The notes beneath the pieces are model-generated. The model was given only the letters and a program-made list of their open reading frames with translations, did no database searches and had not been told where the DNA came from. Positions 3,901-24,670 of a stretch of 28,548 bases of DNA are shown here, piece after piece. The DNA lies in assembly GCA_041663145.1 (NCBI GenBank), contig JBAZRG010000002.1, positions 158,618 to 187,165 on the forward strand, written 5' to 3'. Origin of the DNA: Minisyncoccota bacterium (GTDB lineage: Bacteria > Patescibacteriota > Minisyncoccia > Phycocordibacterales > PALSA-1337). Each line of letters opens with the position of its first letter. Within the stretch, counting starts at the first letter, position 1. Position numbers and translations under genes: made by a program.

Positions 3901-4856
3901 AAGTAGCCCGCGACGCCGATACCGGTCCAACCACCACGGCCGACCGCCGTGTTGTCGCGGATCCGACCTCCGGAGCCTGTTTGGGCACCGGGGAACGGGG
4001 CGACGAATGTCGGATGATTATGAGTCTCTGCGGTCGCGGTGATGTGAACCACTCTGTCGCAAATTCTCATTTCAGAAGGTTCGCCTGGCGCAAGTGGCAG
4101 GATCAGACTAGTTCTGTATCCCTGGACAGCGCCGGCATTGTCCCTGAAGGCGATGAGGCCGACTCGGTCCATCTCCTCGAGGCAAATAAGCGGATGCTGG
4201 ACGATCTCCATTAGTGTGCGTTTCATCGGCACGCCGTCGATGACGATCTGACCTTTGAAGTACCAGTGACGGCTATGCTCGCTGTTGGCGTTGCCGAGCT
4301 GAAAGAGCTCGACATCAGTCGGGTTCCTTTTGAGGATCTCCGCAAAAAGGTGATAATAATATTCGATGTCCTTAGCATCCATGCCAAGGCCTAGAGTAGA
4401 GTTCATTTCCTCGAGAGCTATTCTTCCACGACCCATGAGGTCAATGGTTCTGACTTCTTCTGGTGTCTCCCCAGTGTTAAAGGATTTGATTCCTTCTCGC
4501 AAACGTTGCTCGGTCATGCGATCAAGGTGAGCCTTGAGGATTGTATCACTTGATTGTCCGTCGCCCATCAAATAACGATGGGTACGTTCGATACGCGTGA
4601 TTTGCCGTAAATCCATTGAGTGACATATCGAGACAGCATTCGAAGAGAACGGAGTCTCGATCGAAAGCCGAGGCCCGATCTCGACAATTTCTCTTGTTCG
4701 GAAATGTGGTTCAAATCCGGTTTTATTCGGTTCGAAAGTTTCTGCGATGAGCCATTGAAGTTGACTAATATCCTGAGTCGACAGTTGGCCTGTGGTTTCA
4801 ACGTAGAAACCAAGTTCCAGGCCACTGCTGATCCGACGATATATGCTATAGATCAT
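999..4856 (-). CDS. purL: Phosphoribosylformylglycinamidine (FGAM) synthase, large single-chain type
   Basis: 1285 aa. It has the N-terminal PurL linker domain, duplicated AIR-synthase-related (PurM-like) domains and a C-terminal class I glutamine amidotransferase with the GVCNGCQLM nucleophile motif. AGGAGA SD lies upstream of the ATG at 4856. Confidence 0.95.
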   Translation of the reverse strand: MIYSIYRRISSGLELGFYVETTGQLSTQDISQLQWLIAETFEPNKTGFEPHFRTREIVEIGPRLSIETPFSSNAVSICHSMDLRQITRIERTHRYLMGDGQSSDTILKAHLDRMTEQRLREGIKSFNTGETPEEVRTIDLMGRGRIALEEMNSTLGLGMDAKDIEYYYHLFAEILKRNPTDVELFQLGNANSEHSRHWYFKGQIVIDGVPMKRTLMEIVQHPLICLEEMDRVGLIAFRDNAGAVQGYRTSLILPLAPGEPSEMRICDRVVHITATAETHNHPTFVAPFPGAQTGSGGRIRDNTAVGRGGWTGIGVAGYFVGNLFIQGYEIPEEVVGRDKPSKYASPLSILIEGSNGVSSYGNQFGEPLTLGFCRTFGQIVDGEWREPRKPILYSGGIGHLFDQHLAKETPEVGMKIVRIGGPAYPIGVGGGSASSMMQGQNTDTLDFNSVQRGNAEMENRANRVIRACIEMGDKNPISSIHDQGAGGPSNVLTELLEPLGGTINIRKIVLGDKTMSVLKIWSAEFQEGYGLLIRPEQIGLFQSICKRERVNCEVLGEITGNHKVVVEDSTNGHTPVDLNLEQVLTNMPQKTFESARKTKELKPLDLPEITVGEAIEKVFKLPSVGSKGYLVHKVDRSVTGLVAQQQCCGIAQIPIADNSVNAQSHFGLTGAVSAVGEQPIKMLIDEKAGARLAVAEMLTNMASVKVSGINDIRCRANWMYPAKLPHEGVLLYDAAVAMSDLMVELGIAVDGGKDSLSMAATVQGELVKAPGSLVILGYAPVPDITKKVTPDIKMPGESMLGLIDLSGRLDTQGVLHHKCRLGGSALAQAFNQLGDETPDVDDPKLLKNAFLAIQQMIGEDLILAMHDRSDGGLITAVAEMCMASYCGFRLALGKDIDLLAELFNEELGLILEFEREALCRIGEICSFYGIEICEIGITLPGTTCAIHGGGKTFLTSTEQLRTWWESTSYEIEKLQMNPQCAKVEYFGHNHTDRNDLGHLGYRLSFEPKNTTPDILNAADKPRVAVIREEGTNGDREMQAACLAGGLAPWDVAMSDLLEDRINLDQFQGIIFAGGFSYMDVFDSAKGWAGAILFNPKLREMFDRFYARRDTFSLGVCNGCQLMALLGWIPWRMIESEKQPRFIHNISKRFESRWVQVEILPSPSVLLSGMEGSRLGVWVAHGEGRLFYPDQSILDKVIKAKLSPLAYLDLHGNRTEEYPYNPNGSPGGMTALCSLDGRHLAMMPHPERCFRLWQWPWMPASWQRLGASPWLHMFQNARTWCMEQEV

Positions 4857-5467: not shown

Positions 5468-5628
5468 ATGAATAGAGAGCTCGGCAAACATCGTTCTCAC
5501 ACAACACACAAGGTCACCCACTCCAAATTGCAACCGTATTAGAGCAGATGGAACTACTCTAATACGGGCAATTTGTTCGGGGTTCAAATCACATTGTGTG
5601 TTGTGTGAGAACAATGTTCACCGAGCTT
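5468..5628 (+). repeat. Long hairpin element, copy A, about 160 nt: semi-conserved outer stem, copy-specific inner stem, conserved 87-nt core
   Basis: GAGCTCGG...CCGAGCTT termini; inner arms TCACACAACACACA / TGTGTGTTGTGTGA; core AGGTCACCCACTCCAAATTGCAACCGTATTAGAGCAGATGGAACTACTCTAATACGGGCAATTTGTTCGGGGTTCAAATCACAT. The core matches copy B at 12336-12487 with 1 mismatch and contains an 11-bp internal hairpin CCGTATTAGAG/CTCTAATACGG. Confidence 0.75.
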
Positions 5629-5719
5629 GAACAGAGCCTTGTTTATAATGACTATTAGATTTACAATTATTTTGAATATATTCCATTGATCAATACAGCA
5701 ATCTTATCCAGATAATTTT

Positions 5720-6181
5720 ATGAGAACCATCAACAGAGAGATCGTATCGGCACACGTTTACTCAAGCGACGGTAAATTACTCATGGCAAGAAACAACAAT
5801 CCTGTCTCCGGTGTAGTGTATGGCGATTGTTGGAAGATACCTGGTGGTGGAGTGGAACAGGGAGAGACACAATTACAGACTCTTATTCGAGAGGTAAAAG
5901 AGGAGGTGGGTATCGATATAGCCAAATTTCCAGCTGAATTGGTGGGCGGCATCATGACAGGTGAATCGGAGAAAACACTTCGTGAAACCGGAGAGCGAGT
6001 ACTGGCTAAGATGAGATTCTTTACTTACAAAGTAATTTTAGACAAACCCGTCGCGCAAGTATCGGTGACTCTAGAGCTACATGAATTCAATGAATATAAA
6101 TGGGTCGATCTGTCAGAGTTGAAAACACTTAAACTTAGCCCGCCATCTATTGAGTTGTTTACTAAATTGGGTTTTATATAA
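5720..6181 (+). CDS. Nudix hydrolase
   Basis: Nudix box GGGVEQGETQLQTLIREVKEEVGI (Gx5Ex7REUxEExGU). Confidence 0.8.
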   Translation: MRTINREIVSAHVYSSDGKLLMARNNNPVSGVVYGDCWKIPGGGVEQGETQLQTLIREVKEEVGIDIAKFPAELVGGIMTGESEKTLRETGERVLAKMRFFTYKVILDKPVAQVSVTLELHEFNEYKWVDLSELKTLKLSPPSIELFTKLGFI

Positions 6182-6376
6182 AAGGAGATATGTTATTTTT
6201 AGGAAGAATAATACGTCTAGGTGTTTCCTTATTAGTATGGTAATATACTCATGTAAGTAAAGGGCTTTATTACTAGCGTTTGATGTCTTTTCTAAAGTAT
6301 GTACAATGATACGTCTCAAGCTCACAGTGCATTTTCAGGGTCGTATGACTGAACGCAATATTGATAAACTACATTC

Positions 6377-6613
6377 ATGAAATTCAATTACGATACAATA
6401 GCAGACGCAGCGTATCTAAATGTCGGCGAAGGCAAAGTGGCAAAAACTGTAGAAATGAAAAATGGTGTTGTTGTTGATCTGAATGAAAAAGGGAACATTT
6501 TAGGCATTGAAATTCTTAATTTTTCCGCACAACAGAGCATATCGAAACTTCAAGAGTCAGTGAAAGAGGGAATGCCAATCCAAATAACTTCAGGTACTCC
6601 GGTAACAGCATAA
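6377..6613 (+). CDS. DUF2283 family small protein (YuzE-like)
   Basis: MKFNYDTIADAAYLNVGEGKVAKTVEMKNGVVVDLNEKGNILGIEIL is the typical DUF2283 pattern (KxxYDxxADALYI...G.IxGIEIL). There is no adjacent DUF4258 partner. Confidence 0.6.
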   Translation: MKFNYDTIADAAYLNVGEGKVAKTVEMKNGVVVDLNEKGNILGIEILNFSAQQSISKLQESVKEGMPIQITSGTPVTA

Positions 6614-6648
6614 TCGATAAATGTGGAGTCGGCGGTATACTATAAAAC

Positions 6649-7155
6649 ATGCCAACCTATCCAGCTAAAACCGCCGATAATAAGTGCATATTCTGTGAAA
6701 TCGGATCTGGGAGAATGGAGACCACTTCTTTTTGGGAAGATGCGGAGTTCATGGCTTTTCTATCCATCGATCCCAATACAGATGGATTCTCCTGCGTGAT
6801 TCCGAAAGAACATTTTGGAAGCGATGTATTGAAGATGCCTGATGATGCCCTGCAAAGATTCATCATAGCCAGCAAGAGAGTAGCCAAGATTCTCGAGGAT
6901 TATTATGAAGATGTCGGACGAGTCGGTCTCGTCATGGAGGGTACCGGCATCGATCATGCGCATGTGAAGCTCGTACCGATGCACGATACTCAAGACCTCA
7001 AAAATGGAGGATGGAGGCAGTTTCTCTCAGGCAAGGAACACTGGTTTCCAAAATATGAGGGTTGGATATCTTCGGCTAGTGGACCGAAAGCCGATCCTCA
7101 AAAACTGGAAGAGCTCGCTTCAAAAATCAAGGAATCTCAGAATAAGAAAAGTTAA
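6649..7155 (+). CDS. HIT-family-like protein with a variant histidine triad
   Basis: N-terminal CIFCEI and AFLSIDPNTDGFSCVIPKEH follow the HIT fold pattern. The triad region reads IDHAHVKLVP, i.e. HxHxK rather than HxHxH. There is a ~50-aa C-terminal extension. Confidence 0.6.
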   Translation: MPTYPAKTADNKCIFCEIGSGRMETTSFWEDAEFMAFLSIDPNTDGFSCVIPKEHFGSDVLKMPDDALQRFIIASKRVAKILEDYYEDVGRVGLVMEGTGIDHAHVKLVPMHDTQDLKNGGWRQFLSGKEHWFPKYEGWISSASGPKADPQKLEELASKIKESQNKKS

Positions 7156-7239
7156 TGTTTCTTTGCGCGTGTCCTTGTGTTGATTATGTTCATAAAAATG
7201 ATAGCATAGGTATAAATAATCAACTGATTTACAACATTT

Positions 7240-8421
7240 ATGAACATTAATACCGAGCAAAATAAAATTGACGAGCTATTGACTCGTGGAGTCGAAGAAG
7301 TGATCGAAAAAGATCATCTAGAAAAACAATTGAAAAGCGGAAAATGTCTGCGCGTGAAGCTCGGCATAGATCCGACTAGTCCAAATGTTCATATTGGTCG
7401 TGCTGTACCACTATTGAAGCTTCGAGATTTTCAAGAATTGGGACACAAGATCGTTTTCATCATAGGCGACTTTACCGGTGTGATCGGCGATACTTCTGAC
7501 AAAGACAGTGAAAGACCGATGTTATCCGAAGATATCGTAAAGGAAAATCTCAAGAGTTATATCGAACAGGTCAAGAAGATTATCGATATTGATAAATGCG
7601 AAGTTCACTACAATAGCGAATGGCTGGCAAAACTAGGTTATGGTGAGATCGGCAGACAGGCCGATGCTTTCTCACTCAATGAATTTATTTCCAGAGAAAA
7701 TATCAATAAAAGATTGGAGGGAGGTAAAAGAATATCTTTGCGTGAGCTCCTATATCCACTCATGCAAGGATATGATTCGGTTGCTATCAAAGCCGATGTT
7801 GAGATCGGCGGTACGGATCAGCGTTTCAATCTCTTGGCCGGCCGTGAACTGCAACGCAGTTACAAACAGGAACCGCAGGACATCATCACCAATCCACTCA
7901 TCGAAGGTTTGGATGGTAGGAAGATGAGCTCGAGTTGGGGTAATTCGATAAATCTTTTCGATTCGCCAGACGATATGTTCGGTAAGGTTATGTCGCTCAA
8001 GGACGAGTTTATTATAAAATACTTCATTTTGACGACTAGAGTCAGCATGTCCGAGATTGCGAAGTATGAAAAAGAATTGGCTGACGGAAACAATCCCAAG
8101 GATTACAAGATGAAACTGGCTTTTGAGATCGTCCAGTTCTACCATTCACTGGAGGAAGCGGAAAAAGCCAAGGAATATTTCATAAATACATTTAGCAAAA
8201 AAGAAACTCCGGAGGTTATGCCGGAGATCAAACCGAGCAATTACGATATTATAACCGTCATGGTCGAATCGGGTTTTTCTCCTAGCAAGTCCGAGGCGCG
8301 ACGTCTGGTAGAGCAGGGAGGAGTAAAAGTCAATGAAGCAGTCATGGTTGATCCGAAGAAGATCATTGAGAAGAATGATGTCCTTCAGAAAGGAAAGAGG
8401 TTTTTTCTGAAAGTTATCTGA
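7240..8421 (+). CDS. tyrS: Tyrosyl-tRNA synthetase
   Basis: Class I HIGH-like motif (PNVHIGRAV), KMSSS (KMSKS), a GxDxxxxH connective region and a C-terminal S4 RNA-binding domain (SKSEARRLVEQGGVKVN). Confidence 0.85.
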   Translation: MNINTEQNKIDELLTRGVEEVIEKDHLEKQLKSGKCLRVKLGIDPTSPNVHIGRAVPLLKLRDFQELGHKIVFIIGDFTGVIGDTSDKDSERPMLSEDIVKENLKSYIEQVKKIIDIDKCEVHYNSEWLAKLGYGEIGRQADAFSLNEFISRENINKRLEGGKRISLRELLYPLMQGYDSVAIKADVEIGGTDQRFNLLAGRELQRSYKQEPQDIITNPLIEGLDGRKMSSSWGNSINLFDSPDDMFGKVMSLKDEFIIKYFILTTRVSMSEIAKYEKELADGNNPKDYKMKLAFEIVQFYHSLEEAEKAKEYFINTFSKKETPEVMPEIKPSNYDIITVMVESGFSPSKSEARRLVEQGGVKVNEAVMVDPKKIIEKNDVLQKGKRFFLKVI

Positions 8422-8530
8422 TGAACAATTGTGATGTTAGTATTAGAGAGATGGGCATATCAATAGAGCACACAACGGAGATTGTCAAAAAATTTAGTAA
8501 ATTAAATTATTAGTTAACAGCAATAAATAA

Positions 8531-9085
8531 ATGAAAAAAACTTTAATAATCATTGGTGTAATATTGTTAGTTGTGGTTTTGTATCTATTCGCAGCTTATA
8601 ACGGTCTCGTTGGACTAGATGAAAAAGTCACCGGACAATGGGCTCAAGTCGAATCTCAATATCAGCGACGCTTCGATCTCATTCCCAATCTCGTAGAATC
8701 TGTAAAGGGGATAATGAATCAAGAACAGGAAGTGTTCGGTGCCATAGCTGATGCTCGTGCAAACTATGCCGGTGCCAAAACAGTTGATGAAAAAGCTCAA
8801 GCGGCAGGTCAGGTCGAAAGTGCTCTCGGAAGATTGCTCGTCATCACGGAGAATTATCCAGCATTACAGTCGTCGGCAACCGTTCAGAATCTGATGACTC
8901 AGATCGAAGGTACTGAAAACCGCATTTCAACCGAAAGAAAGCGTTATAACGACACGGTTCAAATATACAATGTGAGGATAAAGAGATTTCCAGGATCGAT
9001 AGTCGCTTCAATGTTCAGTTTTGGTGAACGTTCATACTTCGAATCGGTAGAAGGTTCGGAGCTCGCACCTCAGGTCCAATTCTAA
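8531..9085 (+). CDS. lemA: LemA family protein
   Basis: N-terminal TM helix followed by the LemA signature (AAYNGLVGLDEKVTGQWAQVESQYQRRFDLIPNLV...NYPALQSSATVQNLMTQIEGTENRISTERKRYNDTVQIYN). Confidence 0.85.
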   Translation: MKKTLIIIGVILLVVVLYLFAAYNGLVGLDEKVTGQWAQVESQYQRRFDLIPNLVESVKGIMNQEQEVFGAIADARANYAGAKTVDEKAQAAGQVESALGRLLVITENYPALQSSATVQNLMTQIEGTENRISTERKRYNDTVQIYNVRIKRFPGSIVASMFSFGERSYFESVEGSELAPQVQF

Positions 9086-11076: not shown

Positions 11077-12321
11077 ATGTATCAAAAACATTTTAGAAGC
11101 GCCGGCCCTAGCGGTCAGCCTAAACAATTTAACTATAGAGGAAAGCCCGCTAGTAAAGGCGGTTTTTCTAGTGGTCATGGCAGGAGATTTGGCGGAGGTT
11201 CAGGACGTGGCGGTTTTTCCAAACACATAGACGTCTCGAAATTCATCAATAAGGCAGTCATCACTGAAAAAGTCGAGCATTATGTTCCTGAACATTCTTT
11301 TGCCGATTTTGCCATTGATAATCATCTAAAGACGAATATTGCTACAAAATCCTACTATGTCCCAACTCCTATCCAAGACAAAGCCATTCCGCACATTCTC
11401 CGTGGTTCGGATCTAGTCGGCATAGCAAATACAGGTACAGGTAAGACTGCAGCATTCCTCATACCACTTATCGACAAGGTCATAAAGTCTCCGAGTGAGA
11501 GAGTCCTCATCATTGTTCCGACTCGTGAGCTATCTCAGCAAATAGAAAGTGAATTGCGCGGCTTTACCACACATCTGCGTATTGCATCTGTATCGTGTGT
11601 CGGTGGTGCTGGCATAGGATTTCAGATCAAGTCTCTTTCTATGAGACCACAGTTCGTCATTGGTACACCAGGTAGATTGCGAGATCTCATAGATCGCAAA
11701 CGTATCGATCTTTCTCAGTTTTCTACGGTCGTTCTAGATGAAGCAGATCGAATGCTCGATATGGGATTTATCGGTGAGGTCAAGTTTATGGTTTCCAAAA
11801 TGTCGGCCAAAAGACATACGTTGTTCTTTTCGGCGACGATGTCAAAAGAGATAGAGACTCTGATTTCGCAATTTCTCACCAATCCCGTAATGATCTCTGT
11901 AAAGACGGGCGATACACCTTCGGCAGTAGACCAAGATGTTGTCCGAGTACCTATGGGCAAAAATAAGTTTGATATTTTGACCGATATGTTGAAGCAGTCC
12001 GGTTTCGATAAAATCCTGATTTTCGGCAAGACAAAGCATGGAGTCCAAAAATTGGCTGATCAACTAGCCAAGCTCGGTTTCAAAGCGGAGTCCATCCACG
12101 GTAATAAGAGTCAACCTCAAAGAGCTCGGGCCCTCAATCTTTTCAAGGAACATCATATGAAGATCTTGGTTGCCACGGACGTTGCGGCGAGAGGACTCGA
12201 CATCTCCGGAGTTTCTCACGTCATCAACTACGACATCCCCGCTACCTATGAAGACTATGTGCATCGCATCGGCAGAACTGGAAGAGCTGGAAAGAAGGGT
12301 AAGGCACTGACTTTTGTGTAA
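11077..12321 (+). CDS. DEAD-box ATP-dependent RNA helicase with an N-terminal RGG/Gly-rich region
   Basis: Q-motif, Walker A ANTGTGKT, PTRELSQQ, VLDEADRMLDMGF (DEAD box), SAT and HRIGRTGRAGKKG (motif VI). The ORF ends only 9 aa after motif VI, directly before repeat copy B. Confidence 0.9.
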   Translation: MYQKHFRSAGPSGQPKQFNYRGKPASKGGFSSGHGRRFGGGSGRGGFSKHIDVSKFINKAVITEKVEHYVPEHSFADFAIDNHLKTNIATKSYYVPTPIQDKAIPHILRGSDLVGIANTGTGKTAAFLIPLIDKVIKSPSERVLIIVPTRELSQQIESELRGFTTHLRIASVSCVGGAGIGFQIKSLSMRPQFVIGTPGRLRDLIDRKRIDLSQFSTVVLDEADRMLDMGFIGEVKFMVSKMSAKRHTLFFSATMSKEIETLISQFLTNPVMISVKTGDTPSAVDQDVVRVPMGKNKFDILTDMLKQSGFDKILIFGKTKHGVQKLADQLAKLGFKAESIHGNKSQPQRARALNLFKEHHMKILVATDVAARGLDISGVSHVINYDIPATYEDYVHRIGRTGRAGKKGKALTFV

Positions 12322-14595: not shown

Positions 14596-16383
14596 ATGAC
14601 TCAGACTGAAGCACTCAATATCCTGAAGACTGGCAAAAATGTTTTCGTGACCGGACCGGCCGGCAGCGGTAAGACTTACGTGGTCAATGAATATGTGAAT
14701 TATCTCCGTAAACACGATGTGCCGATCGGAATCACGGCTTCGACGGGTATCGCCGCTACACACCTCGGGGGCATGACAGTTCATTCTTGGTCCGGAATGG
14801 GTATAAAAAATAGTTTGGATGAGCATGAGCTGGCGGAATTAGCAGAAAGATCCAGTACCGCTAAGCGAATCAGGGAGGCGCAAGTTTTGATCATAGATGA
14901 AGTTTCGATGCTTCATCATTTTCGACTCGATACTTTGAATTCTATTTTGAAACACATTCGTAAAAATAGTCATCCTTTCGGTGGCATGCAGATCGTACTT
15001 TGTGGGGATTTTTTCCAATTACCTCCAGTATCTCGATATGGTGAACCAGACACGCACTTTATATATCGTTCGGAAGCCTGGCGGGAAGGTGGTTTTGCGG
15101 TCTGTTATCTTTCCGAAAATTATAGACAGACCGATGACGGCATACTTTCCGTATTGAATGAGATAAGGAGCGGTGAGGTGTCTGACGAAGCTCGCGAAAC
15201 TCTGAAGGGACGATATAGGAATATTTTGAATGCTGATCTCGCTCTAAATGATTTGCCTCCGACTAGACTTTTTACTCACAATGTCGATGTCGATGCAGTC
15301 AACGATGTTGAATTGTCGAAAGTCGATTCTCCGGAATTTTCGTATGAGATGCGCTCCAACGGTCGCAAAAATATAGTTGAACATTTGAGGAAATCTTGCC
15401 TTGCTCCAGAAGTTTTGCGTCTTCGCAAAGGCGCCAGAGTCATGTGCGTCAAGAATAATTTTGAACAAGGATATGTGAACGGGACATTGGGAACCGTTAT
15501 CTCGTGCGGTCCAGGTGTGGATCCGATAATCCAGACCGTTCCGAGTGTGAGCAACCCAAATGGTAGGTCAATCACGGTAGAGTCGGCAGTTTGGCAGATC
15601 GAAGATAACGGTCGGATTTTGGCTGAGATCGAACAATATCCGTTGCGCTTGGCATGGGCTATTACCGTTCATAAGAGTCAGGGTATGAGTTTGGATGCCA
15701 TAGAAGTCGATCTGTCGAAGGCTTTTGAGCCGGGAATGGGATATGTGGCATTGTCACGAGTCCGTACCCTCAGAGGACTTTCACTACTCGGTATGAATGA
15801 GAACGCTTTTCGAGTTCATCCCGAGGTCTTGGAATACGATGTGCATCTGCGTGATTTGTCGATGAAAGCCGAACGTATTTTGCAGAGTACGGATGAAAGA
15901 GATGTTGTCGGGGCGCATAATGAATTTCTGGCTAAAGTTGCACCACTTCATACCATAGATAAAACAGGTCGACTAGTGAGAGGACGAAAGAAAGAAGGAG
16001 AGAAATCCGTAAAATTGTCGACATATGATAAGACGGCACTGCTCGTAAAAGCGGAAAAATCCCTGGGTGAAATGGCTAAAGAAAGAGGAGTCACCACCGA
16101 GACTATCATAGCTCAGATCGAACGATTGATCTCCGGCGGTAAGGGGGTCAGAGAACCAATCAGTATGAATGAGATAATGTATTTGAAAAAAGAGATGTCA
16201 TCTTTACATTTTTCGAAAATCGAAAAAGCGCTTGAAGAAGTTTCCGTTAGGAATAATAGCGATGAGCTTCCACTATTAAGCGCGATAAAGACGATTGTCG
16301 GGCCGAATGTGTCATGGAAGGAGATCAGGCTGGCGAGAGTAATTCTTGGTTATGTTAAGGTGGGTTCAATGTCTGTGTTATAA
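14596..16383 (+). CDS. PIF1/RecD-family SF1B DNA helicase with a C-terminal extension
   Basis: Walker A GPAGSGKTY, motif II LIIDEVSM and the PIF1 signature LCGDFFQLPPV, plus a SF1 C-terminal domain (ITVHKSQGMSLD). About 150 extra C-terminal residues. Confidence 0.8.
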   Translation: MTQTEALNILKTGKNVFVTGPAGSGKTYVVNEYVNYLRKHDVPIGITASTGIAATHLGGMTVHSWSGMGIKNSLDEHELAELAERSSTAKRIREAQVLIIDEVSMLHHFRLDTLNSILKHIRKNSHPFGGMQIVLCGDFFQLPPVSRYGEPDTHFIYRSEAWREGGFAVCYLSENYRQTDDGILSVLNEIRSGEVSDEARETLKGRYRNILNADLALNDLPPTRLFTHNVDVDAVNDVELSKVDSPEFSYEMRSNGRKNIVEHLRKSCLAPEVLRLRKGARVMCVKNNFEQGYVNGTLGTVISCGPGVDPIIQTVPSVSNPNGRSITVESAVWQIEDNGRILAEIEQYPLRLAWAITVHKSQGMSLDAIEVDLSKAFEPGMGYVALSRVRTLRGLSLLGMNENAFRVHPEVLEYDVHLRDLSMKAERILQSTDERDVVGAHNEFLAKVAPLHTIDKTGRLVRGRKKEGEKSVKLSTYDKTALLVKAEKSLGEMAKERGVTTETIIAQIERLISGGKGVREPISMNEIMYLKKEMSSLHFSKIEKALEEVSVRNNSDELPLLSAIKTIVGPNVSWKEIRLARVILGYVKVGSMSVL

Positions 16384-16390
16384 TAACTCC

Positions 16391-17074
16391 ATGTCAACAG
16401 TCCTAATAACCGGCGTATCAAAAGGTATCGGCAAGGAATTGGCTCGAATATTCGAAGAGTCTGGCTATGTCGTACTAGGCACAGAGAGAGATCCTGTATC
16501 TGAAGAACAAAAAGAATCGCTCAAATTATTTACCCTAGATCTATCTGATCCGAAATCAATAGAGTCATTTGCTGATTCTATAAGTAATACAGGTGTGAAG
16601 ATCGATATCCTCATCAACAATGCGGGTACTTTGGTCGACGATGAATTGACACAGGTGCATATCGATAAGCTTCGACAAACCTTGGAAGTCAACCTGATCG
16701 GCACAATAGATCTGACCGAAAGAATGTTACCTATTATGAATAACAATGGTCACATCATCAATATTTCTTCAACAGCCGGCTCACTTACTCACACTACCGA
16801 AGGAACTGATTCTCATTACCCAAATCATTATCCAGCTTATAAAATATCAAAATGCGCATTGAATATGTACACTCGCACATTGGCTATGCGTTTTCGTCTA
16901 GAAAAATCAGATATTCGTGTATCTTCTGTGCACCCAGGTTGGGTAAAAACTGATATTGGTGGTGAAGAAGCGGACATCGAGCCAAAAGAATCAGCCAGAC
17001 ATATTTATGAGTTTGCCATCACGCGCCCAGAATCAGGAAAATTCTGGTTCGAAGGCAAAGAACTTGAGTGGTAA
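16391..17074 (+). CDS. Short-chain dehydrogenase/reductase (SDR)
   Basis: Start moved to the ATG at 16391 (MSTVLITGVSKGIGKEL = TGxxxGIG Rossmann motif). The track's upstream start would overlap the PIF1 gene. NNAG and the catalytic YxxxK (YKISK) are present. Confidence 0.8.
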   Translation: MSTVLITGVSKGIGKELARIFEESGYVVLGTERDPVSEEQKESLKLFTLDLSDPKSIESFADSISNTGVKIDILINNAGTLVDDELTQVHIDKLRQTLEVNLIGTIDLTERMLPIMNNNGHIINISSTAGSLTHTTEGTDSHYPNHYPAYKISKCALNMYTRTLAMRFRLEKSDIRVSSVHPGWVKTDIGGEEADIEPKESARHIYEFAITRPESGKFWFEGKELEW

Positions 17075-17899: not shown

Positions 17900-18095
17900 T
17901 ATGTGTTATATTTCTGGCATACCTATGATCCGGCAGACACCGGTGAGGTGAAGAAAGAAAGCCATCCTTTGATTGGTTAGTAGAATCTTCCGGTAGTGCT
18001 CCGATATGCAGAAATGAAGAAAAAAACAGGGTGGCACCGCGACAAAATCGCCCCTGCGGATTTATTAAAATTAATGAATTCGGAGGGGTGTTTTT
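17900..18095 (+). promoter_or_regulatory. T-box riboswitch leader with intrinsic terminator upstream of the AspRS paralog
   Basis: Canonical T-box sequence AACAGGGTGGCACCGCG (18026-18041; consensus AGGGTGGNACCGCG, with the bulge UGGC matching tRNA 3' GCCA and discriminator G as in tRNA-Asp/Asn). It is immediately followed by the terminator CCCCTGCGGA(18051-18060)...TTCGGAGGGG(18079-18088)+TGTTTTT. The ATG is at 18139. Stem I and the specifier were not resolved by eye, so the 5' boundary is approximate. Confidence 0.7.
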
Positions 18096-18138: not shown

Positions 18139-19467
18139 ATGCAAAGAACATATATAAGAGATCTAAAAGAGTTTATAGGTAAAGAAATTAGCATTTCAGG
18201 ATATGTCGATGTACGTCGCAATCAAGGTAAGATGGTGTTTTTCGAATTTCGCGATCGGACGGGCAAGATACAGGGGGTGGTACTTCCTAATAATTCAGAA
18301 GCTCTTGAATCTTCCAAAGAAATACGTTCGGAATGGGTTGTAGAAATAATTGGCATCGTAAATAAACGTCCGCAAAAGAACATTCAAGCCGGAAAGATGA
18401 ACGGGGATATCGAACTTGAGATTAAACATATTAATGTCCTTGGAATAGCCAAAGAACTTCCGTTTGAAAAAGATTCTGAGATTAACATCGATACGTATCT
18501 CGATTACCTTCCACTCACTCTTCGAAGTCAAACACACACGACCGTCTTCAAAGTTCAGGCAGTTATTGCTAAGGCCTTCAGAGACTTCTTTACAAAAGAG
18601 GGTTTTACGGAATTTCAAGCACCGAAATTAATTGGTGATGATGCCGAAGGTGGGGCGAACTCTTTTGATGTTACATATTTCAAACATATCGCACATTTGG
18701 CTCAAAGTCCCCAGTTATATAAACAGATCATGGTCGGCGTATTTGAACGTGTTTTTTCTGTCGGAAACGTATATCGTGCGGAGAAGCATAGTACAACGCG
18801 TCATCTCAATGAATATACCAGTCTAGACATGGAAATGGGCTATATTAAAGATCATTATGATGTCATGAATTCTGAAAATCAATTTTTGCAATATCTTGAA
18901 AATGTTCTTCGTGCCTCTTGTGTTGATGATTTTGCCTTGCTCGGTGCCACTATACCAACGGTCCCGAAAGAAATTCCAAAATTGACCTTACGCGAAGCTC
19001 AAACACTTATCACAACAGATACCGGTAAAGATTGTACAAATGATCCGGATCTTGAGCCTGAACATGAAAGATGGCTTTGTAAGTATGCCGAGAAGAATTT
19101 TAATTCCGACTTTATTTTCGTCACTAATTTTCCGACAGCTAAGCGACCGTTCTATACTTATAGAGATGAAAAAGATCCAACATATACTAAAGGTTTTGAC
19201 CTGCTCTTTCGTGGTGTAGAAATCACTACTGGTGCGCAACGCATCCATAACTACGACGACCTTGTTAGTTCCATGAAAGAGAAGAAGCTTGATCCTGAAA
19301 AGTTCAAATATTATCTTCAAGCTTTCAAATATGGCATGCCTCCACACGGAGGTCTAGGACTTGGGTTGGAGCGCATCACGGCAAAGCTTCTTGGTCTAGA
19401 AAATATCAAGGAAGCCACTCTTTTCCCGAGAGATATTAACAGGATCGATAACCTATTGTCAGAATAG
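18139..19467 (+). CDS. Class IIb aspartyl-tRNA synthetase paralog (archaeal/eukaryotic type), AT-rich copy
   Basis: Start moved to 18139 (MQRTYIRDL...) downstream of the T-box terminator. N-terminal OB anticodon-binding domain; flipping-loop motif LAQSPQLYKQ (AspRS-type QSPQ); motif 2 YRAEKHSTTRHLNEYTSLDME; motif 3 GGLGLGLERITAKLLGLENIKEATLFPRD. GC is far lower than the second copy at 23312. Confidence 0.8.
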   Translation: MQRTYIRDLKEFIGKEISISGYVDVRRNQGKMVFFEFRDRTGKIQGVVLPNNSEALESSKEIRSEWVVEIIGIVNKRPQKNIQAGKMNGDIELEIKHINVLGIAKELPFEKDSEINIDTYLDYLPLTLRSQTHTTVFKVQAVIAKAFRDFFTKEGFTEFQAPKLIGDDAEGGANSFDVTYFKHIAHLAQSPQLYKQIMVGVFERVFSVGNVYRAEKHSTTRHLNEYTSLDMEMGYIKDHYDVMNSENQFLQYLENVLRASCVDDFALLGATIPTVPKEIPKLTLREAQTLITTDTGKDCTNDPDLEPEHERWLCKYAEKNFNSDFIFVTNFPTAKRPFYTYRDEKDPTYTKGFDLLFRGVEITTGAQRIHNYDDLVSSMKEKKLDPEKFKYYLQAFKYGMPPHGGLGLGLERITAKLLGLENIKEATLFPRDINRIDNLLSE

Positions 19468-19503: not shown

Positions 19504-20241
19504 ATGTATAAACAAGGAATAGAGGTAAAAAGAGAAACAAATTTTGGGATTATTCTTGAGAAGTCCTCATGGTTTTCAATTGTCGAATCTCTTTTCCCGA
19601 AAAGTGAGCGAATCTATTATCCAAATGATCAGGATGAGGTGTTACATATAATCGTGGATGATATTGACATCGCTTTTATCTCTGGTCAAGGTTCAAGCAT
19701 GGTCGCGTGCATGACTGAAAGATTAAGAGTATATGGATCAAAGGCAATAATTAGAATTGGGACATGTGGAGCATTATCGCAAGAAATAAAACTATGGTGT
19801 CCAATTATTACGACAGCATGTTTTAGTAGCGAAGGTACCTCAAAGCATTACTTACCGTGCGGCTATCCTATTATATCTGACTTTAATCTGAATACCCTCC
19901 TCATTAAAAAATTAATTAAAGGAGGTGTTGATTACCAACAAGGTATTACATTAACAACAGATGGTAGATGGCGAGAAGATCCGGTATTGCTCAAACAATT
20001 ATGTCAGCTGGGGGTTATTTCTATTGAAATGGAAACGGCGGCAATTTTATCAGTTTGTCAGTTTAGAAAATTACCTGCAGCTGCAATAAATATTCCAACT
20101 GATTTACCAGCAGACGAGGAAAGTGAAGAAGATTTTAAGGGCATACCAAATCGAGAAACTTATGAATCAGATTTGAGAAAATGTTTAATGAAAATCATTC
20201 CTTTTGCAGTGGAGACCTTAAAAGATTTATATCATAAATAA
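19504..20241 (+). CDS. PNP_UDP_1 family protein, MTA/SAH-nucleosidase-like (Mtn-like)
   Basis: IIRIGTCGALSQ corresponds to the substrate-binding GSAGG loop (NTGSAGG) of MtnN. LTTDGRW carries the catalytic Asp. ISIEMETAAILSVCQ matches the VEMEATAIAHVC motif. It sits 36 nt after the AspRS paralog stop. Confidence 0.6.
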   Translation: MYKQGIEVKRETNFGIILEKSSWFSIVESLFPKSERIYYPNDQDEVLHIIVDDIDIAFISGQGSSMVACMTERLRVYGSKAIIRIGTCGALSQEIKLWCPIITTACFSSEGTSKHYLPCGYPIISDFNLNTLLIKKLIKGGVDYQQGITLTTDGRWREDPVLLKQLCQLGVISIEMETAAILSVCQFRKLPAAAINIPTDLPADEESEEDFKGIPNRETYESDLRKCLMKIIPFAVETLKDLYHK

Positions 20242-20250
20242 ATCAAACAA

Positions 20251-20877
20251 ATGACAATCTGGGCAAACATGATCTATGGTGAAGATGTTAAATTTACTAC
20301 ACCGTTACCAGATAAAGGTTTCCTGACATCCTTTTCAAAAGACATAAGTATTCTTGATGTTGGTTGTGGATATGGAAGAGTTCTAAGTTATTTACAGAGT
20401 TTGGGTTTTACAAATTTGACAGGTTTCGATATATCCTCAAATTACGTATTAGAGGCCAAGAAAAATTGCCAAGATGCAAACCTCTTTGTTTCTGATTTCA
20501 AAAGTTTAAATCTGAATAAGAAATATGATCTAATCTTACTGATGGGGGTTATTGAATATATTCTCACTGATAAAGATCAGGACGCTTTTTTTAGGAAGCT
20601 TTCTGGAGAGCTCTCTACCAATGGATCTGTTTTGCTGGAAACTTTTATTATTGATTTCAAACCAAATTGGAAACAATATATTTTAGGATTTATAAAAACA
20701 TTGCATTTTGGACGGTTTAGAAACAGTAAAGGTTTTGAGTGTCACCATCAGTCGATAAATGGTTTAAGGGTGATATTACAAAAATACTTCATTATTAATT
20801 CAGAGACAGAAAAATGTTATGTAACATGGACCAATAATTATTGCCGTGGGTATAATATTAATTTGAAGAAAAAATAA
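20251..20877 (+). CDS. Small class I SAM-dependent methyltransferase-fold protein
   Basis: Motif I ILDVGCGYGRVLSYL and an acidic post-I residue (GFDIS). 208 aa. The gap to the upstream gene is 9 nt. Confidence 0.7.
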   Translation: MTIWANMIYGEDVKFTTPLPDKGFLTSFSKDISILDVGCGYGRVLSYLQSLGFTNLTGFDISSNYVLEAKKNCQDANLFVSDFKSLNLNKKYDLILLMGVIEYILTDKDQDAFFRKLSGELSTNGSVLLETFIIDFKPNWKQYILGFIKTLHFGRFRNSKGFECHHQSINGLRVILQKYFIINSETEKCYVTWTNNYCRGYNINLKKK

Positions 20878-20881
20878 TTAT

Positions 20882-22960
20882 ATGGAATCAGATTTAGATA
20901 ATTTAATTAAAACTGTTTCAATACAGGAGGAGCGGAAAAGCAGGTGTATAAACCTTATTGCATCAGAAAACATAATCAGTGATAGGGTTAGCCAATTGCA
21001 GGCATCGTTGCTTTCTAATCGGTATATTCTCAATGATTTTCCAAACAATAAAGAACTTTTTGAAATTAAGGAAAAACTGAAATATCATCTTTGCAAAATG
21101 TTTAATGTTAAATATGTCAACATATCGCCGCTTTCGGGTATGAGTTGTATGAGTTTGATTATCAGCAGTCTAACAAACAAAAATGATAACATCTACACGT
21201 TGAAACCTCTTGATGGAGGCCACGCGTCGACCGAAAAAATATGTCACATGTATCATTTGAATATTAACTATTTACCATTTAGTAATATCGATTATCGATT
21301 CAATTTAGAAGAAATAAAGAAAATATTCGAGATAAGAAAACCACGTCTAATATATTTGGATAATACGATCATCAGTTTTTATTCTCCAGTTGATGAGTTG
21401 AAGAAACTTGCAGAAAAATATTATGCTCCGATTGTATATGATGGTTCGCATGTCTTGGGTTTAATCGCTGGTAAGTCGTTTCCGAATCCAATAGAAAACG
21501 GAGCAGATATTTTGAGTGGCAGTACTCATAAAACATTCTTTGGTTCCCAAAAAGGAATCATCTTGACTAATAACCAGGATCTAATAAATAAAATTAATTC
21601 TATATCAAATGATTATATATCTAGTCTTCACACAGGAAGTCTTTTGGCTTTGTATATGAGTGTATTAGAAATGGAAAAATTTGGGAATGAATATGCCATG
21701 CAAGTTGTAAAAAATGCCAAGGCATTGGGGAAAAATCTGGCTATAAATGGGGTTGCAATTCCCACTCTTGAAAAGGGTGTGACTGAAACGCATCAAGTTT
21801 GGATAGACACAGGTAAAGTTGACCCACAAAGAGCATTTGAAATGCTTGCTGAATGTAATATCAATACAAACCCTATTCGGATACCTGCGATACAAAAAGT
21901 TGGACTAAGATTGGGAACTGCGGAAGTGACGAGATTGGGAATGAAAGAAGATGAAATGAAACAGATAGCGAAATTTATTTCTGAAGTATTGATTGGTTCT
22001 AAAGAAAAGAACCTCGTTAAGGAAGATGTAATCAAGTTTAGTGGTAAATATCAAAAAACACTTTTCACTCTAGACAATTATAATAGCAATGTTGATCTTC
22101 CTCTTATGATAAAAGAAAACGAAGTTATTTTAGACCAAAGATTTGAAACACATGATGTAATAAATAATACAACAGTTGTGGGATATGGGGATATTGTGGG
22201 CAAATATGTCAAAGACTTTTTTAGTATAATTCCTGGTTTTCAGGGACTTATTATTCGGGGTGGTGTTGGTAGGGGTACTGCTGATGACTTGTCAGATATT
22301 GATTTCACATGTGTATTTGATTGTGATGATATTGAGAAAATCAAAAAACAATATGGACTTAAAACCGGCATGTATAAATATAATGGAATTATGTTTTCAG
22401 GCCGATATATATCTCTGAATTCGTTTAGAGACAGCTTATGGTCACCTAAAATGAAACATGCTTATTCATATGTGAAGTTGATACATTGTGCCAAAACAAT
22501 TAGTGACATAATAAAAAAGAAAACAAAGATTTCGATTTCAGAACAAAAAAGGAGGTTAGTAGAGAATGTTATTGAGTTGGGAGAAATCTGTAAGGTTTTT
22601 AATGAGTATCACGGTTTTAAAATGTTTTCAGAAATCTATAAACAATATTCAAGAAAAGAATTTTTGGTGGCAAATTTAGAAATTGATAGAGCAGTAAGAT
22701 ATATAAAAAATATAATTTTCGATCTTAACAAAATTAACTATCCTGAGGAAAAAAGTTATTATACTAAGTTCTTTTCCGGTTTACCTAAGCAACCTGACGG
22801 ATTTGATCATCAGATTAAAACCATATTACAAATGCCTCGGGATGATAGAAGTTTTGGAAAACGACTAACACTTCTTGTAATATTAGCCAGAGAGGTTTTG
22901 GGTTATTGTGAAAAATATGTATCTTTACCAAAGGACATATATAAGTTTTACCTGAACTAG
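20882..22960 (+). CDS. Fusion protein: N-terminal SHMT-like fold-type I PLP enzyme plus C-terminal Pol-beta-superfamily nucleotidyltransferase with a helical domain
   Basis: N-terminal half: LIASENIIS (SHMT LIASENFTS), LDGGHAST (SHMT GGHLTHG), YDGSHVLGL (PLP-Asp region DMAHxxGL) and SGSTHKTFFGSQKGIIL (SHMT TTTTHKTLRGPRGG, the PLP lysine). C-terminal half: RGGVGRGTADDLSDIDFTCVF fits the minimal NTase hG[GS]x(9-13)Dh[DE]h motif, followed by a helical substrate-binding-like domain as in ANT/LinB-type nucleotidyltransferases. The gap to the MTase gene is 4 nt. Confidence 0.6.
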   Translation: MESDLDNLIKTVSIQEERKSRCINLIASENIISDRVSQLQASLLSNRYILNDFPNNKELFEIKEKLKYHLCKMFNVKYVNISPLSGMSCMSLIISSLTNKNDNIYTLKPLDGGHASTEKICHMYHLNINYLPFSNIDYRFNLEEIKKIFEIRKPRLIYLDNTIISFYSPVDELKKLAEKYYAPIVYDGSHVLGLIAGKSFPNPIENGADILSGSTHKTFFGSQKGIILTNNQDLINKINSISNDYISSLHTGSLLALYMSVLEMEKFGNEYAMQVVKNAKALGKNLAINGVAIPTLEKGVTETHQVWIDTGKVDPQRAFEMLAECNINTNPIRIPAIQKVGLRLGTAEVTRLGMKEDEMKQIAKFISEVLIGSKEKNLVKEDVIKFSGKYQKTLFTLDNYNSNVDLPLMIKENEVILDQRFETHDVINNTTVVGYGDIVGKYVKDFFSIIPGFQGLIIRGGVGRGTADDLSDIDFTCVFDCDDIEKIKKQYGLKTGMYKYNGIMFSGRYISLNSFRDSLWSPKMKHAYSYVKLIHCAKTISDIIKKKTKISISEQKRRLVENVIELGEICKVFNEYHGFKMFSEIYKQYSRKEFLVANLEIDRAVRYIKNIIFDLNKINYPEEKSYYTKFFSGLPKQPDGFDHQIKTILQMPRDDRSFGKRLTLLVILAREVLGYCEKYVSLPKDIYKFYLN

Positions 22961-23311: not shown

Positions 23312-24616
23312 ATGAATCGCACATTGACTCAATACATACCGGCTTTAATCGGCCAACAAGTAAAAGTTGCGGGCTTTTCACAAGTTATTCGCGACCAAAA
23401 GAAAATGCAGTTTGTGATCCTTAGAGATCAGACGGGGCAGGTTCAGATCTGTCATGAAAAAGGTGGTGACGAGGATGAGTTGAAAAAGACCATCTCTTCA
23501 CTCACCGCTGAATCAGCGGTCACTGTTATCGGTCGCGTGGTCGAAAACAAGGGCGTGAAGCTTGGTGGAGTCGAGATTGTGGCGGAGTCGATTGATGTCT
23601 CAAGCATCGCCATTGTGCCATTACCGATTACGCCGGAATCATCGCTCGATCTGCAGATGGACTGGCGGATGCTTAGCCTGAGACAGCCAGAAAATCTCCT
23701 GATCTTCCAGGTCCAGACGACCATGGAGCAGGCGATGAGGGAGTTCTGGGCTGACAACGGATTCATCGAGGTACATTCGCCGAAGCTTATGGCAACGGCG
23801 AGCGAATCGGGTGCCGAGCTGTTTCAGCTTGAGTACTTCGGACAGAAAGCGACTCTGGCTCAATCGCCACAGTTTTATAAGCAAATGGCGATGGCGGCAG
23901 GGTTTGATCGGATCTTCGAGATCGCGCCTGTATTCCGTGCTAATCCGTCGTTCACATCACGACATGACACCGAGTTTACCTCGGTTGACATGGAGATATC
24001 GTGGGTTGATTCCCATGAAGATCTGATGCATATCGAGGAAACTTGGTTGCATCATGTGGTCAAACGAGTGTCGGAGAAACACGGTAAAGCCATCAAGGAC
24101 ACCTTCGGAGCTGATGTGGTGATTCCTCAGCTTCCATTTCCGAGGGTTACCTTGGCAAATGCGCGAGAGATTCTCGCAAAGCAGGGTCATACCATGGAGC
24201 AAATCACCGACCTCGATCCGCCCGGCGAAAGAGGTTTGGCGGAACACATCAAGAAGGAATTTGGTCACGAGTTTGTTTTCGTGATCGACTACCCGATTGA
24301 TGTGCGGCCGTTCTACCACATGCGTCATGTCGGCAATCCCGGCATCACCAAGAGCTTCGACCTTTTATGGAAGGGGCTTGAAGTGACGACGGGTGCACAG
24401 CGTGAACATCGTGTCGAGACGCTCGAACAGCAGGCACGGGAAAAGGGCTTGGCTCTTGCTCCTCTTGCACACTATATCAACTTCTTTCGTTACGGCTGTC
24501 CACCGCACGGAGGATTTGGCGTGGGACTTACGAGGCTTCTCATGGTTCTCCTTGATCGTAAGAACGTCAGGGAAGTGACCTACCTCTATCGCGGGCCTAA
24601 TCGCCTGACACCGTAA
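23312..24616 (+). CDS. aspS: Aspartyl-tRNA synthetase, archaeal/eukaryotic type (class IIb)
   Basis: OB-fold N-terminus; QSPQFYKQ flipping loop; motif 2 FRANPSFTSRHDTEFTSVDMEI; motif 3 GGFGVGLTRLLMVLLDRKNVREVTYLYRGPNRLTP (compare archaeal AspRS ...FPRDRRRLTP). GC is typical of the surrounding genome. Confidence 0.85.
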   Translation: MNRTLTQYIPALIGQQVKVAGFSQVIRDQKKMQFVILRDQTGQVQICHEKGGDEDELKKTISSLTAESAVTVIGRVVENKGVKLGGVEIVAESIDVSSIAIVPLPITPESSLDLQMDWRMLSLRQPENLLIFQVQTTMEQAMREFWADNGFIEVHSPKLMATASESGAELFQLEYFGQKATLAQSPQFYKQMAMAAGFDRIFEIAPVFRANPSFTSRHDTEFTSVDMEISWVDSHEDLMHIEETWLHHVVKRVSEKHGKAIKDTFGADVVIPQLPFPRVTLANAREILAKQGHTMEQITDLDPPGERGLAEHIKKEFGHEFVFVIDYPIDVRPFYHMRHVGNPGITKSFDLLWKGLEVTTGAQREHRVETLEQQAREKGLALAPLAHYINFFRYGCPPHGGFGVGLTRLLMVLLDRKNVREVTYLYRGPNRLTP

Positions 24617-24639
24617 TTGTTCTTTGGTTAGTTAACACA

Positions 24640-24670
24640 CAGCTAGGATGAAAGTCCTGGCTGTTTTTTT
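24640..24670 (+). terminator. Rho-independent terminator after aspS
   Basis: Stem CAGCTAGG(24640-24647)/CCTGGCTG(24656-24663), 8 bp including one G-U pair, loop ATGAAAGT, then TTTTTTT. Confidence 0.5.

Follow-up and report, generated by a model that had tools for sequence, protein, structure and literature searches.

A 28,548-nucleotide stretch from a Minisyncoccota bacterium (contig JBAZRG010000002.1, positions 158,618 to 187,165; hereafter the window) contains a gene for a protein in which a pyridoxal 5'-phosphate (PLP) domain of the serine hydroxymethyltransferase (SHMT) fold is followed by a Pol-beta-type nucleotidyltransferase (NTase) core and a helical domain. This fusion gene is the last of a tight set of three, after the genes of a PNP-like enzyme (a nucleosidase or phosphorylase of the PNP_UDP_1 family) and of a methyltransferase dependent on S-adenosylmethionine (SAM). 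The set, designated here the cassette, is flanked by two genes of aspartyl-tRNA synthetase (AspRS): aspS_A, which ends 36 nucleotides upstream with no terminator-like site in between according to a terminator scan, and the second, divergent aspS_B (Table 1). Both folds are known; what is new is how they are combined, along with the altered active sites and a cassette linked to aspS. Literature searches returned no description of the fusion or the cassette, and no characterised enzyme with such a fusion, in keeping with the initial annotation of the sequence.

Table 1 Positions of the fusion gene, its domains and key residues, and its neighbours in the window
Feature	Positions	Strand	Remarks
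T-box leader-like RNA upstream of aspS_A	17916..18058	+	Rfam RF00230, 42.1 bits against a gathering score of 93
aspS_A, housekeeping non-discriminating AspRS	18139..19467	+	NCBIfam NF003483, 504 bits (cut-off 353)
Cassette gene 1, PNP_UDP_1-family nucleosidase/phosphorylase	19504..20241	+	Pfam PF01048, E=2e-26
Cassette gene 2, class I SAM-dependent methyltransferase	20251..20877	+	Pfam Methyltransf_23/25/11, E ~1e-14
Fusion gene	20882..22960	+	ATG start, 692 residues, single open reading frame (ORF)
Fusion residues 1-395, SHMT-fold PLP domain	20882..22066	+	
Leu50	21029-21031		PLP half
His114	21221-21223		PLP half
Asp187	21440-21442		PLP half
Lys217	21530-21532		PLP half
Arg343	21908-21910		PLP half
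Fusion residues 400-432, variable low-confidence linker	22079..22177	+	Predicted local distance difference test (pLDDT) <50; indel-rich in the family alignment
Fusion residues ~433-547, Pol-beta-type NTase core	22178..22522	+	
Asp472	22295-22297		NTase half
Asp474	22301-22303		NTase half
Ser506	22397-22399		NTase half
Cys536	22487-22489		NTase half
Fusion residues ~548-692 and stop codon	22523..22960	+	Four-helix HEPN-like bundle as in kanamycin nucleotidyltransferase (KNTase)
aspS_B, second divergent AspRS	23312..24616	+	NCBIfam NF003483, 471 bits
Predicted terminator of aspS_B	24639-24664		Terminator scan

A conserved fusion of a PLP domain and a nucleotidyltransferase

The motifs on which the initial annotation relied are all present: STHKT with Lys217, GGH (residues 112-114), YDGSH with Asp187 and His190, and the NTase motif GRGTADDLSDIDF (residues 463-475). 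Its reading of the protein as an SHMT-like PLP domain, a minimal Pol-beta NTase and a KNTase-like helical domain was borne out by profiles, by the structural model and by Foldseek. Among 5.8 billion proteins searched, 27 clusters of full-length fusions were found, 673-701 residues long and 44-95% identical, derived from NCBI, ENA, JGI and Logan assemblies. The closest cluster is labelled Patescibacteria, and the public annotation of these relatives is either 'hypothetical' or 'glycine hydroxymethyltransferase'. The window protein was aligned with 25 cluster sequences (26 in total). Invariant residues are Lys217, Asp187, His114 and Arg343 in the PLP half, and Gly460, Gly463, Arg464, Ser471, Asp472 and Asp474 in the NTase half; those of the helical domain include Glu568, Glu584, Lys587 and Arg591. 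The Schiff-base lysine and both aspartates of the DxD motif are thus conserved in homologues.

The fusion is a genuine, conserved bifunctional architecture. A frameshift artefact is excluded, because the full-length ORF and the catalytic motifs are kept across divergent clusters. The probability that a frameshift or an assembly error has joined two separate genes is accordingly negligible, even when the loci that might suggest it are taken into account. In the distant locus L086 (~42% identity), the halves are encoded by neighbouring ORFs that differ in frame, and in L087-L089 the fusion gene and the PNP-like gene are each split into two ORFs, on at least nine contigs from different samples. 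Against these stands the intact ORF in 26 clusters from four assembly sources at 44-95% identity. Three proteins that seem to consist of the C-terminal half alone (P0121, P0123 and P0124) are all encoded on short contigs; the gene of P0123 is cut by the contig edge, and the same is presumed for P0121 and P0124. The cassette of L087-L089 (for example L087 7684-11149) seems to be decaying, with an intact RimL-like GNAT gene downstream (11155-11718).

Active sites of the two halves

The Pfam SHMT family (PF00464) covers residues 8-366 (E=3e-37, 128.6 bits against a gathering score of 27). The NCBIfam scores for SHMT (NF000586, 243.3 bits, cut-off 335) and for fluorothreonine transaldolase (TIGR04506, 231 bits, cut-off 650) are similar to one another and both below the cut-off. 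A weak match to the SelA Pfam family was also obtained (E=0.006). The closest solved structure is that of M. jannaschii SHMT (PDB 4BHD/4UQV; E=6.5e-60 over residues 1-398), and the threonine transaldolase ObiH (7K34) also matches (E=6e-32). Arg343, in the GLRLGT segment, corresponds to the carboxylate-binding arginine of SHMT. The position of the SHMT catalytic glutamate (YAEG motif) is occupied by Leu50, which is invariant in the fusion family. This glutamate (Tth Glu53 / Ec Glu57) has been proposed to be SHMT's universal acid-base catalyst (PMC11323337). In the same region, the M. jannaschii segment 'RYAEGLPGKRLYQGCKYID' aligns with 'RYILNDFPNNKELFE' and a six-residue gap, which removes six residues of the tyrosine-bearing loop 1. 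A second deletion relative to the M. jannaschii enzyme lies before GLRLGT. In the full-length model, residues 41-50 have a mean pLDDT of 54, and the neighbouring stretches 31-40 and 51-60 of 66-67. Remodelling of the two folate-binding loops is what distinguishes clusters of threonine transaldolases (PMC10495429).

As read from the sequence, the PLP half retains the machinery that binds PLP and the amino-acid alpha-carboxylate but fails the defining features of SHMT. It most resembles folate-independent aldolases and transaldolases, and folate-independent aldol or transaldol chemistry is suggested because the catalytic glutamate and both folate loops are lost. The absence of the folate signature had been recognised in the initial annotation, which left a choice between aldolase-, transaminase- and decarboxylase-like chemistry. 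The similarity to SHMT and to threonine transaldolases favours aldol chemistry at C-alpha and C-beta; the sequence cannot settle this choice.

The NTase half is matched by Pfam NTP_transf_2 below threshold only (residues 456-485, 18 bits against a gathering score of 21). An AlphaFold model of residues 396-692, built from a 21-sequence alignment, is confident (pLDDT 87.9, predicted template modelling score (pTM) 0.81). In Foldseek, its best structural matches are the aminoglycoside nucleotidyltransferases (ANTs) ANT(4') (E=2e-8) and ANT(6), and LinB, so that the assignment as ANT/KNTase-like was right. The family profile gives weak matches to sequences of ANT(4')-IIb and KNTase (E=0.005-0.1). 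With hhalign, IRGGVGRGTADDLSDIDF is paired with KNTase VYGSLGRQTDGPYSDIEM, the core motif only being aligned; Gly460, Arg464, Ser471, Asp472 and Asp474 fall on GSLGR...SDIE of KNTase. The KNTase query agrees with the KNTase segments in the output of the profile search.

Two acidic positions differ from those of the relatives. Ser506 (FSxR) is invariant at the position of the third carboxylate (hDh), where 68% of 47 stand-alone relatives have an aspartate, and Cys536 is found where 91% of them have one. The subfamily linked to SHMT-like proteins in which Ser506 and Cys536 occur includes the split protein P0126. In the helical domain, Glu568 is invariant and Lys/Arg571 conserved in 'ELGEICK', with a likeness to Glu145/Lys149 of KNTase that was noted by eye only. 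In a profile search of 1.84 billion representatives, the distant NTase relatives are mostly stand-alone proteins of 250-290 residues; others are fused to a GNAT, a SAM methyltransferase, a rifampin-phosphotransferase-like module or an adenosine deaminase. These relatives are small-molecule-modifying NTases. The NTase site of the fusion looks functional but non-canonical.

The initial annotation had further suggested that the product of one site could be channelled to the other. This remains conjecture, with nothing to support it beyond the tethering, because the linker of ~33 residues is of low confidence and the full-length model has no confident interface (pTM 0.58).

Cassette distribution and linkage to aspS

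The PNP-like protein is closest to short AMP nucleosidase, uridine phosphorylase and hexameric PNP/MTAP. Its best NCBIfam match is AMP nucleosidase (76 bits, below cut-off), with PDB 1ybf at E=1.5e-13. The nearest solved relatives of the methyltransferase include CFA synthase and N-methyltransferases (BamL, DesVI/TylM1, PEAMT). The three genes are found together at the loci L001, L002, L003-5, L006-8, L087-89, L100, L101, L103, L104 and L105, in surroundings that are otherwise unrelated. Wherever the locus extends far enough, a PNP-like gene accompanies that of the fusion, and a methyltransferase gene is present in all cassettes except that of L102. Other genes accompany the cassette in some lineages: an adenine phosphoribosyltransferase (APRT)-like gene in L100 and L101, among whose nearest solved relatives is the adenine phosphopsicosyltransferase that acts in the biosynthesis of angustmycin; a RimL-type GNAT in L087 and L105 (67% identical to each other); an ATP-grasp-like gene in L003 and L103; and, as assigned by eye from the sequence, a cytidine-deaminase-like gene in L104. 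The L102_414 protein has no sequence match in the PDB, and neither L002_371 nor the 531- and 730-residue proteins of L086 match any family of the library. A known anti-phage defence system was considered and rejected, as neither the fusion nor the PNP-like protein was matched in PADLOC, and the methyltransferase gave generic matches only.

The fusion is extremely rare. It is present in three of 185,579 GTDB species representatives, labelled Saccharibacteria or Paceibacterota; the profile search gave seven representatives with E<=1e-30 among 1.84 billion, and a metagenome scan eight loci. In the window, the GC content is 0.31-0.35 in the cassette genes and 0.40-0.52 in the flanks (aspS_A 0.40, aspS_B 0.52). 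A similar drop is seen in L001 (0.38-0.42 against 0.46-0.53) and L003 (0.35-0.40 against 0.50-0.58), but not in L002 or L087. Several loci have transposases, serine recombinases or restriction-modification genes nearby, and between distant lineages the fusion is more conserved (50-58% identity) than the neighbouring AspRS (40-46%). Because of the drop in GC content, the nearby mobile genes and this better conservation, the cassette is taken to be an accessory, probably mobile module of these ultra-small bacteria, the Patescibacteria.

What matters most is the context, which the initial annotation had not seen: the cassette is conserved and linked to aspS. In 10 of 11 lineages, it has an archaeal-type aspS as its neighbour, and five gene orders occur: aspS-PNP-methyltransferase-fusion (window, L003, L006-8, L087, L103), PNP-methyltransferase-fusion-(T-box)-aspS (L001, L090; the T-box being detected in L001 only), PNP-methyltransferase-fusion-APRT-aspS (L100, L101), fusion-X-aspS-PNP (L102) and PNP-methyltransferase-fusion-GNAT-aspS (L105). 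The retention of this linkage through rearrangements argues for a functional tie of the cassette to AspRS, tRNA-Asp or tRNA-Asn. Two aspS copies flank the cassette or sit within it in the window, L001 and L102.

The two copies of the window are of different kinds. More than 120 protein clusters are 68-84% identical to aspS_A across Paceibacterota/Parcubacteria. The product of aspS_A is therefore taken to be the housekeeping enzyme, and the possibility of a resistance copy specific to the cassette is ruled out, as its close relatives are far more numerous than those of the fusion. The product of aspS_B is 35% identical to that of aspS_A, and its gene has a GC content of 0.52 in a contig of ~0.40. 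Orthologues of this second type stand beside the cassette in L100 (68%) and L102 (55%). A promoter-like TTGACA was read by eye at ~23198 upstream of aspS_B and was not reported by the scan.

The T-box leader-like RNA of the window was detected with E=6e-8 in a 601-nucleotide search. It contains the conserved AGGGUGGCACCGCG box, and nearly all of its Stem I is deleted, 72 model positions being reduced to two. A similar element precedes an aspS in L001 (12119-12257), where it lies downstream of the cassette. At E<=0.01, none was detected in L086 or in nine further loci with the cassette. A general role of T-box control in the cassette is thus ruled out. T-boxes with a minimal Stem I in Patescibacteria may deserve a study of their own.

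Some further features of the window and of the related loci were recorded. On the minus strand of the window, positions 999-4856 encode a single-chain FGAM synthase PurL of 1285 residues, with a GC content (0.50-0.54) well above that of the rest of the contig. This enzyme is unexpected in a genome of the candidate phyla radiation (CPR) with reduced purine synthesis, and could result from horizontal transfer or from a chimeric bin. Genes of CYTH, NUDIX and HIT-family nucleotide hydrolases lie upstream of the cassette (132-683, 5720-6181 and 6649-7155, plus strand), and a NUDIX gene directly precedes the cassette in L101. In L001, a tRNA-Asp gene (1275-1350) abuts that of a large serine recombinase (1311-2957), followed by transposases and a LOOT RNA (5615-5730, 60 bits). 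This arrangement, a few kilobases from the cassette, suggests a mobile element integrated at tRNA-Asp. In L002, which belongs to a clade of 46% identity, the cassette is found amid three radical-SAM genes and ORFs of 38-43 residues (5956-8552 and 15255-16757), an arrangement like that of clusters for ribosomally synthesised and post-translationally modified peptides. A DUF805b RNA motif (7132-7166, 52.5 bits, above the gathering score) and octopine-dehydrogenase-like and metallophosphatase genes are also present there. In L086 (7201-12998), the relative that diverges most, the SHMT-like (427 residues) and NTase-like (271 residues) ORFs are flanked by a 2-oxoglutarate-Fe(II) oxygenase, a xylose-isomerase-like TIM barrel and the 730-residue protein, with seryl-tRNA synthetase and another class II aminoacyl-tRNA synthetase nearby. 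The locus may represent another pathway that employs this pair of enzymes. No split NTase partner was found beside the stand-alone SHMT relatives of Deinococcota and archaea (L009-L085).

Possible function and comparison with known systems

It is tentatively proposed, as the most favoured reading but one that may well prove wrong, that the fusion is a two-step enzyme forming a beta-hydroxy amino acid by aldol or transaldol chemistry and then O-nucleotidylating it, to give an aminoacyl-adenylate-like product linked to AspRS. The PLP half would condense an aldehyde with glycine or threonine as donor, independently of folate, to yield a beta-hydroxy-alpha-amino acid. The tethered ANT-like half would place a nucleotide, probably AMP, on a hydroxyl group of this product. 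The methyltransferase would then decorate the compound, and the nucleosidase/phosphorylase would process the adenine nucleotide moiety or remove the by-product of SAM; at some loci, the APRT-like enzyme would recycle adenine. The pathway would end in an amino-acid/nucleotide conjugate acting as an inhibitor or modulator of AspRS, from which a second copy of aspS or, at some loci, the RimL-like acetyltransferase could afford protection. The APRT-like, RimL-type GNAT and ATP-grasp-like accessory genes are consistent with a conjugate of an adenine nucleotide and an amino acid.

A more specific version of this proposal is quite doubtful. The cassette would be a minimal, mobile pathway with which CPR bacteria make a natural mimic of an aminoacyl-adenylate: the hydroxyl of a hydroxy-amino compound from the PLP half would be adenylylated by the ANT-like half, and the resulting phosphodiester, a non-hydrolysable analogue of aspartyl-AMP, would act on AspRS. 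Protection of the producer would come from aspS, co-expressed or duplicated, and in some lineages also from a RimL-like acetyltransferase. An analogy is offered by microcin C, an AspRS-directed mimic of aspartyl-adenylate; RimL and MccE acetylate aminoacyl-nucleotides that target AspRS, which protects the microcin C producer (PMC3817062).

Several points weigh against the proposed two-step synthesis. Every chemical step in it is inferred from sequence and context. Canonical two-metal nucleotidyl transfer is not assured, because the third carboxylate (Ser506) and a further aspartate (Cys536) are lost; the NTase half might serve to bind nucleotides or act as an enzyme in a non-canonical way. The full-length model consists of two confident domains without a confident mutual orientation. 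Against MTA/SAH nucleosidase, the PNP-like enzyme reaches a poor score of 23 bits, and neither an exporter, nor a precursor peptide, nor an MccB-like enzyme is conserved among the neighbours of the cassette. The second aspS copy and the GNAT are limited to some lineages, and aspS is absent from the vicinity of the cassette in the 46%-identity clade (L002, L104). As aspS_A is an ordinary housekeeping gene, its adjacency could also reflect inherited synteny or an insertion preference.

Three other explanations were weighed. The cassette might serve in detoxification of, or resistance to, an incoming nucleoside or amino-acid antibiotic, for example an aminoacyl-nucleotide or a glycyl-nucleoside released by hosts or neighbours. 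This is considered unlikely. Retro-aldol cleavage by the PLP half, ANT-like O-nucleotidylation, removal of the base by the nucleosidase and methylation would be the inactivating steps, and the extra AspRS and the GNAT would protect at the level of the target. Such a role would agree with the structural class of the NTase domain, which is that of antibiotic-modifying ANTs, and with the presence in its relatives of fused GNAT and rifampin-phosphotransferase-like modules, as are typical of resistance enzymes. It would also suit a rare cassette of low GC content, located where the surrounding regions are variable and contain transposases, recombinases and restriction-modification genes, and the RimL-like GNAT of two lineages. 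However, four inactivating activities in a fixed operon, two of them fused, would be unusual and look more like consecutive steps of a pathway; acidic residues conserved in ANTs are lost, and no known antibiotic fits all four activities. A role in primary metabolism is less probable still. The PLP half would be a threonine, serine or glycine aldolase associated with nucleoside salvage by the nucleosidase and APRT, the NTase-like half a nucleotide-sensing or self-AMPylating regulator, and the adjacency to aspS would be inherited. This is difficult to reconcile with a fusion family that is so rare when relatives of the housekeeping AspRS abound, with a cassette whose composition differs from that of its flanks, and with a linkage to aspS that was kept through several rearrangements of gene order. 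In addition, the SHMT catalytic glutamate is missing, and the DxD, GS, Arg464 and the Glu/Lys of the helical domain are invariant as in an active site.

The persistent linkage to aspS can also be explained by chemistry on tRNA, which is judged very unlikely. The fusion would act on aspartyl-tRNA (Asp or Asn) or on tRNA-Asp, in the manner of SelA, SepSecS, SepCysS or the tRNA nucleotidyltransferases, with the HEPN-like domain binding RNA. The weak SelA match, the HEPN-like domain itself and the position of the window cassette behind a T-box-controlled aspS speak for it. Set against these are the invariance of Arg343, which in SHMT binds a free alpha-carboxylate, and the lack of an RxxxH HEPN motif in the fusion. 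The structure resembles small-molecule ANTs, not CCA-adding or MenT-type enzymes, and the methyltransferase and nucleosidase would be left unexplained. No tRNA gene is found in the window or beside the cassette, so that a module with a dedicated tRNA, similar to the Pyl system of synthetase, tRNA and biosynthetic enzymes, was likewise rejected.

If the proposal of a two-step enzyme is correct, the coupling of a PLP aldol step to O-nucleotidylation would represent a new enzymatic logic, and its product a small molecule of CPR bacteria, whose secondary metabolism and host interactions are almost unknown. An AspRS inhibitor made in this way would define a peptide-independent route to aminoacyl-tRNA synthetase inhibitors based on a Pol-beta NTase, and would be the first defined secondary metabolite of Patescibacteria. 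The fusion could also supply biocatalysis with a folate-independent aldolase or transaldolase and a new nucleotidyltransferase.

Microcin C synthesis also involves a SAM-dependent transferase (MccD), a PNP_UDP_1 nucleosidase (Mtn) and a PLP enzyme. The cassette has a similar set of activities, with predicted nucleotidyl transfer and these three kinds of enzymes, together with a RimL-like GNAT at some loci and the connection to AspRS. It differs in that no precursor peptide or ThiF/MccB-type domain is found among the ORFs of the window or the neighbours of the cassette, that its PLP enzyme belongs to a different fold family, and that its nucleosidase is not Mtn-like (23 bits). The resemblance, though striking, is one of analogy, not homology. 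Like ANT(4') and KNTase, the C-terminal half consists of an NTase alpha/beta core and, after it, a helical (HEPN-like) domain, and it keeps the hG[GS] motif and the DxD/E metal ligands. Unlike in ANT(4')/KNTase, LinB and ANT(6), to which it is just 12-16% identical, a serine stands for the third carboxylate and a cysteine for an aspartate. The NTase is moreover fused to a PLP enzyme, and an aminoglycoside acceptor is unlikely.

The N-terminal half has in common with M. jannaschii SHMT the fold-type I PLP domain, the STHKT lysine, the PLP-binding aspartate and histidine, and the carboxylate-binding arginine. It departs from that enzyme by the leucine in place of the glutamate, by the shortening of the tyrosine-containing loop and of the loop before the arginine, and by ~290 additional C-terminal residues. 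The L-threonine transaldolases (ObiH, LipK/AbmH, fluorothreonine transaldolase) are SHMT-like PLP enzymes with remodelled folate loops, as in the fusion (PMC10495429). Fluorothreonine transaldolase likewise consists of an SHMT-like domain with a C-terminal addition, which is aldolase-like in that enzyme and a Pol-beta NTase in the fusion. Characteristic of threonine transaldolases is L-Thr as the glycyl donor, with a quinonoid intermediate that persists. Two of these transaldolases, LipK and AbmH, work in pathways to nucleoside antibiotics.

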